This document shows positions 34,458-57,327 of a stretch of 64,000 bases of DNA, in pieces. A program made the translations under genes and the position numbers. The stretch's first letter is position 1. Each line of letters starts with the position of its first letter. The notes under the pieces are model-generated. The model saw only the letters and a list, made by a program, of their open reading frames with translations, ran no database searches and was not told where the DNA came from. Source of the DNA: a candidate division TM6 bacterium GW2011_GWE2_36_25 (GTDB taxonomy: Bacteria; Babelota; Babeliae; Babelales; UBA12409); assembly GCA_000991575.1 (NCBI GenBank), contig LBRU01000001.1:156996-220995 (forward strand). The letters run 5' to 3'.

Positions 34458-35426
34458 ATGAATAAAATATCAAAAATATTGTTTTTCATTAATTTGGTTT
34501 ATTGTTTTGGTCTTTTTGCGATTCCTGAAAAGATAATTAATTGTGATATTGGACAAAAAGAAGCGGTTCCTGAGCGATGGCAGTTGGCTTGTACTGCAAT
34601 GTCTGTTGCTGCGGCTGCATATTTATTTCACGAACCATTAGGCCAGATAGAGTCTCAAGATCTTTTTTCAATTATTTGGTTAGGGGGAAATTTTTATGAT
34701 GCATTTAATTCACCTGAAAAGGAATTGGCTGCAGATCCACACTTATTTGAATCGTTTAATCGTTATTTAAATGTTATTGAACAATCTGATTATCAAATAA
34801 TCGGCGAGGAATTGGGTGTTGGTGACTCGATATCTTTTTTTGGTGTTAATGCACAAGATAAAGATGAGTTAGATCGGATATGTTGTCGCTTGATTCAAGA
34901 TGGTAAGCCTACTCATAAAATGGGTGGATTATTGACCGGGCAGCTTATTGAGCATTTATTTAATAGCCACCGCGAGTTAAAATGTCCTATTGCTGTTGTT
35001 TTTACGCTCGATACTGCTTATTCATATGCAATTATAGTTCAAAACGACCACTTTTTGTTTTTTGATTCACATCATAAAACCGGAGACCATACTGGTTCTA
35101 GACTTCTTATTTTTAATACGGTAGAAGAGATGAATGACTTTCTTCTTGTGGAGTTACCGCACGTTCCTTTTAGCGGTTCTTTTATTATTCCGCGAAGTTC
35201 ATTTATAAAAAGATCGGTTATTTCTACGGAAGTGGAAAAAGCTTACGAGGATGCTTTGATGCGACTTGGTGATGATGGTTTTTCGTTTATTTCTGAAGAG
35301 GAGAAAAAAGAACAAATAAAAGCATTGCAGAAGCTTGCTGAAGAAGAAGCGTGTAAAAAGAGAAAAGAGCAGGAGGAGCTCGACGCAGAGACGGCTTGTT
35401 TAGTGCAGGAGACTGAAGATAGGTAA
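34458..35426 (+). CDS. Secreted herpes-tegument-like (VTD/C76-type) cysteine protease, putative deubiquitinase, with C-terminal MIU-like motif
   Basis: Signal peptide; GQ-x11-C (QLACTAMSVA), L..I...G..Y helix, VVFT..AYSYAII....FLFFDSH; acidic tail with ELDAETACLVQETE. Confidence 0.7.
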   Translation: MNKISKILFFINLVYCFGLFAIPEKIINCDIGQKEAVPERWQLACTAMSVAAAAYLFHEPLGQIESQDLFSIIWLGGNFYDAFNSPEKELAADPHLFESFNRYLNVIEQSDYQIIGEELGVGDSISFFGVNAQDKDELDRICCRLIQDGKPTHKMGGLLTGQLIEHLFNSHRELKCPIAVVFTLDTAYSYAIIVQNDHFLFFDSHHKTGDHTGSRLLIFNTVEEMNDFLLVELPHVPFSGSFIIPRSSFIKRSVISTEVEKAYEDALMRLGDDGFSFISEEEKKEQIKALQKLAEEEACKKRKEQEELDAETACLVQETEDR

Positions 35427-35671
35427 GGGGCGATCTGTCTTTTACTTCTTGATCATGAGAAAGAAGCGCGAGACCAATATTTTGCTGATCAAATTATGGA
35501 GTTTTTAAACGATCTTATTAATTGTGCTCAAAAAAGAAGTATTTAAGCTGAGTGGTGTGTAAATTGCTCTCTTAAGCTTCAATTTCAAAATTTCTCTGTA
35601 ATTAATATAAATAATTTATTGTAATTTCAGATAGAAATGTTTTATAATTAAATAAATATGGAGGATTTAAG

Positions 35672-36640
35672 ATGAAGAAATATTTTTTAAGTTTAATATT
35701 TTTGTCGAGTGTTGGTAGTTTATGTGCTATGGGGCGAGATGTTCGTTTAACGCCTGCGGGTCAGTATGAATATTTTCGAGTAATTCCATCATTAATTGAA
35801 GGTCAAAACTTTGACGAGGCGCGTGAACGCATTAATTTTCTCAGAACAGCGTCAAGAAGTTTTGTTTCAACTGATCAGCTTGATTTGATTGAGGCACAAT
35901 TAGAGACGGCTATTCGTGACAAAGAAGATATGCGAGCATATGAACGTGAGCAGGCGCGGTTATTGCAAGACTATAATACAGTAGAGCAGGATATGTATCA
36001 CTATCGTGATCGTCATGATATTGATTCTGAGCGCAGTTCTTTAATGGGTTTATGGGAAATTGCTCAGAATATTGATAGAGAACCCTTGTCATTGCCAGCG
36101 CACATGGTACGACTTTTCCAGATTGAAAGCTGTTCATTAGCATCATCTAAAAAAGATGATCGTTTAATGATTGATTTGATTACTTATTTTGAACGAACTC
36201 ACGATAAAGTTGCACATGATGCATTTGAATTAATGTATTATGGGGACGCATCCGGTCGTTGTGTATCTCCTTTTCAACGATTGCATGGTGAGGCAAAGCG
36301 TCTTTATGATAGTGATTTAGTGCGCGCAACACAATTGCTTGAATTTCTCATGTTAGTGGGCGATGAATCGTTACGTAATCGCGCAACTATCTTTCTTGCA
36401 ACGGGGGAAGATCCAGAAGGGGTGGCTGAAGAAGAACATATTGTTGATTTGCCAATGCGGCATGTTTTAGATTGGCCTGTTGCTGAACGTGTGGCTGAGT
36501 ACTTAAGTCAGGCCGGGGAGACTATTGATGAAGCATTTCAATTGGCTGAACTTAATCAGGACAGAGAAGCTGTTGCTCAACTAGCGCAGATAGTTACTGA
36601 TGAAGCATTAGCCAGATCACTTGCAAGAGACTTTAACTAA
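35672..36640 (+). CDS. Secreted helical hypothetical protein with C-terminal MIU/UIM-like motif
   Basis: GGAGG RBS; signal MKKYFLSLIFLSSVGSLCA-MG; ends TDEALARSLARDFN. Confidence 0.75.
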   Translation: MKKYFLSLIFLSSVGSLCAMGRDVRLTPAGQYEYFRVIPSLIEGQNFDEARERINFLRTASRSFVSTDQLDLIEAQLETAIRDKEDMRAYEREQARLLQDYNTVEQDMYHYRDRHDIDSERSSLMGLWEIAQNIDREPLSLPAHMVRLFQIESCSLASSKKDDRLMIDLITYFERTHDKVAHDAFELMYYGDASGRCVSPFQRLHGEAKRLYDSDLVRATQLLEFLMLVGDESLRNRATIFLATGEDPEGVAEEEHIVDLPMRHVLDWPVAERVAEYLSQAGETIDEAFQLAELNQDREAVAQLAQIVTDEALARSLARDFN

Positions 36641-36664
36641 TAAAAAATATTGAAAATTAGAGAG

Positions 36665-36694
36665 AGGGGCAGAAATTAACTTGCCCCTTTTTTT
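36665..36694 (+). terminator. Intrinsic terminator
   Basis: GGGGCA-N10-TGCCCC followed by a T-tract. Confidence 0.75.
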
Positions 36695-55610: not shown

Positions 55611-55753
55611 TGGATGTTTTGTATTGGTTTCAAGGGAAAAAGGCTAAAAAAGTATAAGTTTCGCTTTTACTATCGTTTTATACGTTTATACTAAATACAT
55701 AAATATTTTTCATATTTTTTAATTTTTGCCGATAAACATGAAATGAGCAGTTT

Positions 55754-56542
55754 ATGAAAACAATATACCTTTTATTACTTATAGCTCCTTTATTTTCGAT
55801 GGAAAAAAAAGATAAGGATGAAAAAGCTCGATTTATTTCTGAAGAAATTGCGTGTGCTATTTGTAGAGAAGAACTTAAAGATACTTTTTCATGTGGACAT
55901 ACCGTTCATCCTTGGTGTGGTGTTCCGCATAGTGATGGGGCGATCAAATGTCCAATGTGTGAACCTAAAAAAACTTATCATCAAGCAACTCAAACTGAAC
56001 CGAAAATAATTTCGACAAAATCTACTGTTACGCAAACAGAGATAGTTCAACAGTCATTGTTGGTGGCTTGTTGTTCTCTTATTAAACCAGATACATCCGA
56101 TTGCTATTGGTACCCTGATTATTTAAAAGATAATATAAGGGGATTGGGGGAATGGCGACGACCAGATGGTAGGGTTACGTTGTATGAATTGATGGATTGC
56201 TGTTGTATGCGTCATACAGGGGCATTCTTATTTAGTGATCACGGTATTATTTGTCCCCGATGCTGTCTTGATAAAACACCGTGTTGGGATGAACTTCATA
56301 AAACGTGGTGTGGTTGTTCCGATGACGTAAGGAATGGATGTAGAATTGTCTTTCCTGCATTACTCCTTCCTTTGTGTTTTGGATTTCATAATGGATGTCT
56401 AATGGCGCTTCCTATATTATGCGTTGAAAATATTGTATGTGGTGCGTTGAGGGACGAAAAGTATGGATGTAAATGTGAAGGTGAATGTCCTTATTGGTGG
56501 CCAAGTAAATTTGAACGTCCAAGATCTCTTCGAAAGAATTAA
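55754..56542 (+). CDS. Secreted RING-H2 protein with Cys-rich C-terminal domain (paralog A)
   Basis: Signal ending LFS-ME; CAIC-x9-CGHTVHPWC-x10-CPMC; Cys-rich tail. Confidence 0.8.
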   Translation: MKTIYLLLLIAPLFSMEKKDKDEKARFISEEIACAICREELKDTFSCGHTVHPWCGVPHSDGAIKCPMCEPKKTYHQATQTEPKIISTKSTVTQTEIVQQSLLVACCSLIKPDTSDCYWYPDYLKDNIRGLGEWRRPDGRVTLYELMDCCCMRHTGAFLFSDHGIICPRCCLDKTPCWDELHKTWCGCSDDVRNGCRIVFPALLLPLCFGFHNGCLMALPILCVENIVCGALRDEKYGCKCEGECPYWWPSKFERPRSLRKN

Positions 56543-56544
56543 AT

Positions 56545-57327
56545 ATGAAAAAAATAATGCTTATATTTATATATGTGCATTGCCTTTTTGGTATGGATGC
56601 TGAATCTGTTTCTTCAGAAATATGTGATAAATGTCATGACAGAATTGTCACTACGTTACCATGTGGGCATAAATTTCATCCAAAGTGCATTGGGGAATGG
56701 TGTAATAGTGGTATTTCACGAGTTTTGCGGTGTCCATGTTGTCGAGGCTCAATTCATAAATATCCAACGATAGAAGACCGTTCAAAATCAATTGAAGTTC
56801 AAGTGTCAAACACGAAAGAAATGGCAACGCAGACTGATCCTGTTACTTGCGTTATACCGTTGTGTGCATTATGTTCTCTTTTTCGAAGACCACACGTCCC
56901 CTGTTATTGGTATTGTGATTATGTAAAAGATAATCTTGAACCTTCAGCTCCTCGATATTGGGGTGAGACCTTTCATGAAATAGCGTGTCGCAATGGGGGT
57001 CCGAATTGTTGTTTGCTTTCAGGAGATAGCTTTCGTCATGTTGGCGCGTTCTTATTCAGTGATCATGGTATATGTTTTCCCTATTGTTGCATTAAAAAAA
57101 CTCCCTGCTGGGAAGGCGCAACTAAAAAATGGAGTGGTCTTTCACCATATGAACGTACGTTAATACGATGCTGTTTGTTTTGTCCATTTTTTGGCCCATT
57201 TTTTACAGATTGGAATAAAGAAATTGCTCAAGAAGAACTGAAAAAGGGTAAAGATGTTAAGTGTGACGAATGTCCTTATTGTTGGCCAGAGCTTTTTGAG
57301 AAAGAAATATCTATGCATGCTGAATAA
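56545..57327 (+). CDS. Secreted RING-H2 protein with Cys-rich C-terminal domain (paralog B)
   Basis: Signal ending LFG-MD; CDKC-x9-CGHKFHPKCIGEW...RCPCCR; tail homologous to paralog A (GAFLFSDHGI, KTPCW, ECPY.WP). Confidence 0.85.
   Translation: MKKIMLIFIYVHCLFGMDAESVSSEICDKCHDRIVTTLPCGHKFHPKCIGEWCNSGISRVLRCPCCRGSIHKYPTIEDRSKSIEVQVSNTKEMATQTDPVTCVIPLCALCSLFRRPHVPCYWYCDYVKDNLEPSAPRYWGETFHEIACRNGGPNCCLLSGDSFRHVGAFLFSDHGICFPYCCIKKTPCWEGATKKWSGLSPYERTLIRCCLFCPFFGPFFTDWNKEIAQEELKKGKDVKCDECPYCWPELFEKEISMHAE

Follow-up and report, generated by a model that had tools for sequence, protein, structure and literature searches.

Gene content of the region

The window analysed here is a stretch of 64,000 nucleotides (C1:156996-220995) from candidate division TM6 bacterium GW2011_GWE2_36_25, a reduced member of the Dependentiae (Babeliales) and an obligate intracellular parasite of protists, whose assembly of 1.07 Mb in 17 contigs has 36% GC and is 94.6% complete. 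We surveyed a set of eukaryote-like and leader-bearing genes lying at positions 34458-57327 of this window, namely a deubiquitinase (DUB) candidate of the viral tegument-like (VTD) type, a helical partner protein, a protein of 657 amino acids, an ankyrin-like protein, a DOT1-like methyltransferase and two tandem RING-H2 proteins. A sequence-only reading of this DNA had combined a DUB candidate, MIU-like motifs, two RING-H2 proteins, a DOT1-like methyltransferase and an ankyrin protein into one coordinated and Sec-exported toolkit of writers, readers and erasers acting on host ubiquitin and chromatin. The gene map from 32.4 to 61.1 kb shows the effector-like genes as islands amid housekeeping genes, with both strands used, and the set is probably an accumulation of independently acquired accessory effectors. 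The phylum-wide tallies given below refer to 261 species genomes, every one in a single order, and gene order was compared with two congeners (G175 and G176) and with a sister strain of ~80% identity (L040).

The VTD-type deubiquitinase candidate

The first gene (34458-35426, + strand) encodes a leader-bearing protein of 322 amino acids, and a promoter-like site at 34401-34429 favours its start at ATG 34458 over TTG 34434. The protein carries the oxyanion residue Gln33 within IGQK (34548-34559), the catalytic Cys45 within ACTAM (34587-34601) and the pair Asp203-x-His205 within FFDSHH (35058-35075). The match to the Pfam family Herpes_teg_N was weak (E 0.005), a word-indexed homolog search returned the query itself as the sole match, and a sequence search of the PDB with the single protein gave no match. 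Seven relatives were recovered by an exhaustive HMMER scan of 1.8 billion representatives. In the alignment the blocks C-x-IGQK, ACTAMA and SYAIIV...LFFDSHH are conserved, with Asn in place of Asp in some relatives and Gly in place of the catalytic Cys in one. The profile of the protein with its seven relatives was then compared with the PDB, where the top match was the VTD deubiquitinase 8adb (E 7.6e-4), with the Cys block and the His block both covered, ACTAM being aligned with ACTC and FFDSHH with FDPHG; M48USP was the second match. An AlphaFold2 model built from the alignment (predicted local distance difference test, pLDDT, 81; predicted TM-score, pTM, 0.73) gave 8adb/8adc/8add and M48USP (2j7q) as its six best Foldseek matches in the PDB, with probability 1.0 and target TM of 0.47-0.71, followed by AvrPphB, and this order of fold neighbours agrees with Erven et al. 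2022 (PMC9741609). The profile, the predicted fold and the Cys/Asp-x-His motifs together give good support to the product as a candidate deubiquitinase of the VTD class, as the sequence-only reading had proposed.

Erven et al. solved the structures of Wc-VTD1 and of the helitron DrT1-VTD2, found the Asp-x-His catalytic motif, with an N-terminal catalytic Cys, to be invariable in the family, and reported bacterial members only from two Chlamydiales and one myxobacterium (PMC9741609). The protein described here shares the papain-like fold, the N-terminal Cys and the Asp-x-His motif with Wc-VTD1 and Wc-VTD2 of Waddlia chondrophila and with M48USP/UL36USP, and like the Waddlia enzymes it comes from an intracellular bacterium. 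It has ~15% identity to the known VTDs, and unlike the described bacterial ones it bears a Sec leader while its genome shows no marker of type III secretion systems (T3SS). It further differs in its long helical tail at the C-terminus and in a partner gene specific to the genus, and the activity is here putative. The candidate was found in 6/261 genomes, all within the window's own family (f1). By profile and predicted fold it appears to be the first VTD deubiquitinase in the Dependentiae, and the class would thus extend to one family of this phylum, here with an export leader and with a partner gene restricted to the genus.

Elsewhere in the Dependentiae an open reading frame (ORF) of ~1,530-1,550 amino acids (G174:C9, L031 6002-10597) contains a VTD-like domain and an ORF of 1,036 amino acids (G091:C2:10689-11276) contains a DOT1 domain, and it is possible that these long ORFs encode multidomain effectors.

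The partner protein and the 657-residue protein

The partner gene (35672-36640, + strand) encodes a leader-bearing, helical and genus-restricted protein of 322 amino acids with an N-terminal module of ~77 amino acids (35744-35974). No Pfam or NCBIfam family was matched by it, and it was found in the genus alone, apart from a weak hit of the N-terminal module (E 5e-4) in another genus of the family. In G176 the partner and the deubiquitinase are adjacent directly after priA with their order swapped (priA-partner-DUB), and the G176 deubiquitinase bears at its C-terminal end another version of the partner's N-terminal module (41% identity, E 3e-18); G175 has the two genes on separate contigs. A functional link between the two proteins is plausible, because they are adjacent in G176 and have this module in common. 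A search of the other proteins of this genome found the module in none of them, and an impression that an 'NF-E-E-A' helix was common to the module and to the 657-residue protein was not confirmed.

The sequence-only reading had taken motifs resembling the motif interacting with ubiquitin (MIU) as readers, and this part of it was given up. The sole basis for the partner as a reader is the C-terminal stretch DEALARSLARD (36599-36631). The loose MIU-like pattern is found 3 times in the proteome, where shuffles give an expectation of 2.6, the strict MIU pattern and the strict pattern of the ubiquitin-interacting motif (UIM) have 0 hits in the proteome, and the 41%-identical G176 ortholog of the partner has DEADACQFIDAE at the corresponding position. 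The motif is thus at chance level and not conserved, and the partner was rejected as a ubiquitin reader.

The 657-residue protein (36790-38763, + strand) has a leader, two 'GHLW' modules of ~170 amino acids which form an internal duplication (E 4e-9), and a charged coiled-coil tail. No Pfam or PDB relatives were found for it. Its 'GHLW' part weakly matches the product of C15:18912 (E 1.5e-4), a gene that adjoins a RING-ankyrin gene, and we do not count it as a shown member of the ubiquitin set.

The DOT1-like methyltransferase

The DOT1-family protein (53295-53951, - strand) has 218 amino acids and consists of a leader and the catalytic core only, with TYGE at 53787-53798 (- strand) and the S-adenosylmethionine (SAM)-binding motif I D-x-G-x-G-x-G as DLGCGIG at 53700-53720 (- strand; residues 78-84). 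It matched the Pfam family PF08123 (DOT1) at 85 bits with a cut-off of 23, and the earlier assignment to this family was hence confirmed. Its best solved relative is 9ne1 (E 1.9e-12, residues 24-204), which was recognised as Legionella LpDot1 by the loop sequence RDAIEYVYGE, followed by human DOT1L (~5e-11, residues 51-181) and then by archaeal enzymes of the aKMT4 type. LpDot1 is lpp3025 of Legionella pneumophila and was described as an effector by Nicchi et al.; it has no activity on histones, is without the DOT1L loop 273-286 and the ubiquitin-binding C-terminal helix 319-331, has Ala in place of Phe131 and methylates SFPQ at K518 (bioRxiv 10.64898/2026.01.11.698932).

The alignment of the window protein with DOT1L stops at query residue 181/218, so ~37 residues remain where DOT1L needs ~60, and the nucleosome loop 273-286 and the ubiquitin-binding helix 319-331 therefore do not fit. 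By ungapped counting, Gly48 stands at the position of DOT1L Phe131, and the patch that looked like a nuclear localization signal aligns with the basic KKH region belonging to the DOT1 fold itself. The protein and LpDot1 are alike as catalytic cores of ~220 amino acids without the nucleosome- and ubiquitin-binding elements of DOT1L, and they differ in the hydrophobic leader of the former; we know of no Sec leader on LpDot1, for which SFPQ K518 is the methylated site. As judged from these alignments, the enzyme does not appear to belong to the DOT1L type which acts on nucleosomal H3K79 and is stimulated by H2B ubiquitin. The crosstalk between ubiquitin and DOT1 which the sequence-only reading had raised as speculative is therefore unlikely, since the required elements would not fit and the closest characterised relative is inactive on histones.

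The DOT1 family is present in 65/261 Dependentiae genomes (25%), including 5/6 of those that bear the deubiquitinase, and 19/20 of the Dependentiae-type homologs fetched have a hydrophobic N-terminal leader. The named relatives are almost all from Candidatus Babeliales, Candidatus Dependentiae or candidate division TM6. Earlier work had already noted Dependentiae homologs of DOT1, which cluster with Legionella and protist sequences in a DOT1 phylogeny (PMC10117894). Leader-bearing LpDot1-like enzymes are found in a quarter of the Dependentiae species, and their substrate lends itself to comparison with that of the Legionella enzyme.

The tandem RING-H2 paralogs

RING A (55754-56542, + strand) has 262 amino acids with 26 Cys and is composed of a leader, a RING domain (55853-55960), a TQT-containing linker and a Cys-rich C-terminal domain that includes a hydrophobic segment. 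RING B (56545-57327, + strand) has 260 amino acids with 27 Cys and the same order of leader, RING domain (56623-56742), linker and Cys-rich C-terminal domain. The two genes are in tandem with 2 bp between them, and their products are 32% identical (BLASTP). Both have the complete C3H2C3 ligand set, C-x2-C...C-x-H-x2-H-x2-C...C-x2-C. A profile built from A, B and one 78% relative matched almost exclusively RING E3 domains in the PDB, with gp78/AMFR first (5.2e-5) and then TRIM31, synoviolin and RNF38. The full ligand pattern and this profile uphold the earlier call of two RING-H2 proteins, at Pfam scores below threshold.

The two proteins are like gp78/AMFR (2lxh), synoviolin/HRD1 (6a3z) and RNF38 (4v3k) in C3H2C3 spacing, the profile match covering residues 20-72, and differ from them in being joined to a leader and an orphan Cys-rich domain. 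The residues of E2 contact are kept in part: B retains the Trp and the Arg that follow the last Cys pair but not the Ile of the first pair, and the reverse holds for A, with the Ile present and the Trp and Arg missing. A word-indexed search with RING B returned the query and the one 78% relative, and for the Cys-rich domain (~10% Cys) a relative was found in one sister strain only among 5.8 billion proteins. The full-length architecture occurs in 1/261 phylum genomes. This RING and Cys-rich family is thus, on sequence grounds, a new and lineage-restricted one, confined to this genome and one strain of ~80% identity. RING A and B are, by their domain composition, two members of a genome-wide class of leader-RING proteins, which counts 10 proteins on five contigs, 4 of them fused to ankyrin repeats, and is confirmed by Pfam.

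A T-Q-T tripeptide is invariant in the linker between RING and Cys-rich domain of A, B and the 78% relative (window 55982-56041 and 56785-56838), with a Lys at -5. Canonical LC8 motifs have their Lys at -3.

The ankyrin-like protein

The ankyrin-like protein (49408-50457, + strand) has a leader and a single recognisable repeat at 49705-49800 (residues 100-131), which scores E 0.013 in Pfam, under the cut-off. The DARPin hits obtained in the PDB are to this repeat only, and with an ankyrin hidden Markov model trained on the genome the protein is the weakest of 35 (E 0.0026). The genome as a whole has 35 ankyrin proteins, of which 32 carry leaders. The earlier call of an ankyrin protein stands for the one repeat; a tandem array was not seen in the protein.

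Leaders and export route

Each of the seven proteins has at its N-terminus a short basic run, then a hydrophobic segment of 11-16 residues and a small residue at -1, so that the Sec-type signals claimed earlier were seen on every candidate by our own heuristic. The same heuristic flags leaders on 41% of the ORFs genome-wide and on 39% in the region, which is no enrichment. Neither FHIPEP/SctV nor VirB4 was found in the whole assembly, and the earlier statement that the window has no T3SS or type IV secretion system (T4SS) gene accordingly extends to the whole assembly. The secretion genes that are present comprise three secretins, a GspE/PilB-type (T2SSE) ATPase of 568 amino acids and a PilT-type ATPase. 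On this inventory Sec followed by type II secretion is the likely export route. The route had been regarded as unknown by the sequence-only reading, and was in fact already proposed for the phylum: TM6 genomes have genes for type II secretion in their core set (PMC4776705), and in Babela massiliensis type II secretion is the only secretion system (PMC4378268). In Chromulinavorax 44% of the coding sequences have signal peptides, a share not far from the 41% flagged here, and the organism replicates in the host cytoplasm and sheds vesicles (PMC6561590); with such replication there would be no vacuolar membrane to cross.

The secretins lie in two loci (C1:86076-89940 and C1:117585-125733). One of them has PilMNOP-sized genes upstream, and the other has secretins of 779 and 815 amino acids in tandem, with genes for 542 and 200 amino acids between.

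A Met stands directly after the leader in 26% of the leader proteins of the ankyrin (ANK), RING, DOT1 and VTD classes and in 6.4% of the other leader proteins (Fisher p 0.0015), the Met background being 1.9%. This junction Met may mark the start codon that the gene had before a leader was grafted on, reflect a preference at the cleavage site, or serve as an additional start of translation. Within the window it is seen, as ..A/S/G-M-D/E.., in the genes at 55754, 56545, 49408, 35672, 47912 (- strand), 52521 and 63681.

Two adjacent genes elsewhere in the genome, C15:17936-18880 (RING-ankyrin) and C15:18912-19826 ('GHLW' module), encode mature parts that look unrelated and are 90% identical in DNA over 88 nt at the 5' gene end around the leader. 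For a third gene, C5:38056, the identity is 79%. Such likeness suggests leader shuffling. From the junction-Met enrichment and the leader identity of the C15 pair one may draw a wider proposal, that Dependentiae deliver a VTD deubiquitinase, about ten RING E3s and a DOT1-type enzyme to the host cytosol through Sec and a type II secretin, with no injection apparatus, and that they build such effectors from eukaryotic ORFs gained by horizontal transfer, to which a common Sec leader is added; the junction Met seen in a quarter of them would then be the old start codon. These are hints, and the proposal is for us tentative and rather doubtful.

Organization and distribution of the genes

Promoter-like sites lie ahead of the deubiquitinase and of the partner. 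Between the partner and the 657-residue gene a strong terminator-like hairpin (36658-36695, + strand) is followed by a 12/12 sigma-70 consensus (36725-36754), and further terminator-like sites follow the 657-residue gene and OmpH. At least the three genes at 34.4-38.8 kb therefore seem to be transcribed as separate units. When 5' regions were compared all against all, no upstream DNA common to the genes of the region was found.

The gene order of the relatives points the same way. In both G175 and G176 mutL comes right after the DOT1 and OmpH genes, and neither TauE nor RING A/B is present, so that the TauE gene and the two RING genes occupy an OmpH-mutL gap which is empty in the congeners. 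G175 is also without the HAD, ankyrin-like and Ku genes and has its deubiquitinase in a different context, and the sister strain retains the arrangement of the window. The distributions differ as well, with RING A/B in 1/261, the deubiquitinase in 6/261 and DOT1 in 65/261 genomes. Because the parts were gained at different times and have such different distributions, the genes are best described as independently acquired accessory effectors and not as a coordinated unit.

The region holds 5/43 of the ANK, RING, DOT1 and VTD genes of the genome, which places it in the top 3.5% of windows of 22.9 kb and makes it one of four dense spots. This density is modest, and the count of five is inflated by a tandem duplicate and by the weakly supported ankyrin gene. 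The comparison of congeners cautions that effector-like genes lying close together in such genomes do not necessarily work as a unit.

Interpretation and alternative explanations

The domain identities, the leaders, the inventory of secretion genes and the independent gain and loss of the genes were all observed, and the reading which we favour and consider probable is built upon them. A conserved housekeeping backbone (priA, polA, thyX, L27, secF, rho, tsaD, smpB, the tmRNA gene, Ku and mutL) would have received unrelated eukaryote-like genes at different times, namely the VTD deubiquitinase with its partner, the degenerate ankyrin-like gene, the LpDot1-like core and the tandem RING-H2 pair. 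The proteins would cross the inner membrane by Sec, leave through the type II secretin machinery and possibly also in outer-membrane vesicles, and act on the host separately: the deubiquitinase may remove ubiquitin chains, such as those on the bacterial surface or near it, the RING proteins may recruit host E2 enzymes, and the methyltransferase may modify a host protein, probably not nucleosomal H3K79. Export, delivery to the host and all enzymatic activities are what we infer, and a host-directed function is the most likely one for eukaryote-like leader proteins of such sequence in an intracellular parasite. The earlier idea of a host-manipulation toolkit is retained in this respect, for eukaryote-like and leader-bearing proteins in an intracellular parasite, and is abandoned in respect of coordination, readers and ubiquitin-DOT1 crosstalk.

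Several points weigh against this reading. The density of the region, above that of 96% of same-size windows, would fit some local insertion preference. The leaders were called by a permissive heuristic of our own and not by SignalP or another trained predictor, and the absence of T3SS and T4SS holds for the assembled part of the genome only, at 94.6% completeness. The type II assignment rests on the secretins and the ATPase, by which type II secretion and a type IV pilus are not settled between. Both RING proteins fall under the Pfam zf-RING_2 cut-off of 27.3 bits (B 24.7, A 15.7), the AlphaFold2 model of RING B from three sequences is unusable (pLDDT 31), and zinc-dependent Cys-rich RING proteins would have to survive transit through the periplasm.

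A single coordinated programme of writers, readers and erasers acting on host ubiquitin and chromatin, with crosstalk from H2B ubiquitin to DOT1, could explain why five eukaryote-like genes lie within 22.9 kb, why the deubiquitinase and the partner are neighbours in 2/3 congeners with a common module in G176, and why most deubiquitinase-bearing genomes also carry DOT1. That co-occurrence falls inside one family of eight genomes and is confounded by phylogeny, and the genes are not co-inherited, being gained and lost independently with housekeeping genes between them and with promoter- and terminator-like sites of their own at 34.4-38.8 kb. The chance-level MIU motif, the DOT1 core too short for the loop and the helix, its Gly at the Phe131 site and the failure of LpDot1 to methylate histones are also contrary to it, and we regard such a programme as very improbable. 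It is unlikely, too, that the proteins act in the envelope of the bacterium itself, as a papain-fold periplasmic peptidase, disulfide- or zinc-bearing Cys-rich proteins and a membrane-tethered methyltransferase. A leader found on ~41% of the ORFs says little by itself, a DOT1 homolog of a free-living Roseivirga is equipped with a membrane anchor at its N-terminus, there is a second hydrophobic segment in RING A and ~10% Cys in both RING proteins, and archaeal DOT1-family enzymes, of which 5fa8 and NF041081 were among the matches, act on prokaryotic proteins; all of this would agree with a role in the envelope. To our knowledge, however, the periplasm does not contain the methyl donor SAM. Bacteria are without ubiquitin or E2 enzymes, the sister RING proteins of the genome are fused to ankyrin repeats, and a distribution so patchy and lineage-specific is in keeping with accessory effectors. 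Elsewhere, the VTD and RING folds are of eukaryotic, viral or effector type (PMC9741609).

The favoured reading also assumes that the leaders are used. If translation started at the Met after the hydrophobic stretch, the products would be cytoplasmic or would exist as dual isoforms, and the junction Met of RING A, RING B, the ankyrin-like protein and the partner, together with its 26% frequency in eukaryote-like leader proteins against the 1.9% background, would be accounted for. Canonical leaders of the MKK-plus-hydrophobic type, however, precede dozens of genes that are otherwise unrelated, and orthologs retain them, from which selection on the leaders follows, and a RING protein or a deubiquitinase in the bacterial cytoplasm would find no substrate there; leaders that are unused or used part-time are hence very improbable.

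Relation to known ubiquitin systems

Export of ubiquitin writers and erasers by Sec and type II secretion in TM6/Dependentiae was already published in 2015-2019, and the present genes form no new category. Babela massiliensis, described by Pagnier et al. 2015 as an exploiter of host ubiquitin, has a RING finger protein, an F-box protein, three secreted C19 ubiquitin hydrolases and permuted Ulp1-like proteins (PMC4378268). It belongs to the same phylum as the genome studied here, and both have E3-like and DUB-like proteins, tagged with signal peptides and scattered in a reduced genome, for which Sec and type II secretion have been proposed as the path into the host cytoplasm (PMC4378268). The differences are that the deubiquitinase is here of the VTD class (peptidase C76-like) and those of Babela are USP/C19, that the RING proteins are more numerous here (10), and that the Cys-rich domain of RING A/B has no relatives elsewhere. 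Profile searches of this genome for F-box-like and Peptidase_C48 domains gave no match; an OTU search of the genome gave none as well, and since the control genomes also gave none, absence of OTU is not shown by it. The additions made by this dataset are thus a candidate VTD-class deubiquitinase in Dependentiae, the leader-bearing LpDot1-like enzymes and the orphan family combining RING and Cys-rich domains.

Other features of the window

The set is preceded by priA (32404-34407, - strand). After the 657-residue gene come polA (38876-41590), thyX (41602-42309), the gene of ribosomal protein L27 (42420-42686), secF (42719-43621), rho (43693-45009), tsaD (45150-46166, - strand) and a gene for a small leader protein (46163-46885, - strand), then smpB (46967-47419), a second small leader protein gene (47412-47912, - strand), the tmRNA gene (48043-48414) and the gene of a HAD-like hydrolase (48653-49282). 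The ankyrin-like gene is followed by Ku (50666-51445, - strand), a MazG-like gene (51514-51819), a cyclase (51865-52500) and a membrane protein (52521-53291), and the DOT1-like gene by OmpH/Skp (54056-54748) and a TauE/SafE-family membrane protein (54894-55610, + strand). The RING pair is followed by mutL (57431-59230).

Ku has no neighbouring ligase gene in the window. In the sister strain (L040 4921-6659) Ku is followed by a LigD-type ATP-dependent ligase, and a pentapeptide-repeat gene is also present there which the window is without.

The palindrome TTGATA-N4-TATCAA was considered as a common operator and rejected, as it is not upstream of the effector genes except 47412-47912. With at most one mismatch it occurs five times in the window, at 20136, 29434, 29690, 47956 and 63530, against 0.61 expected.

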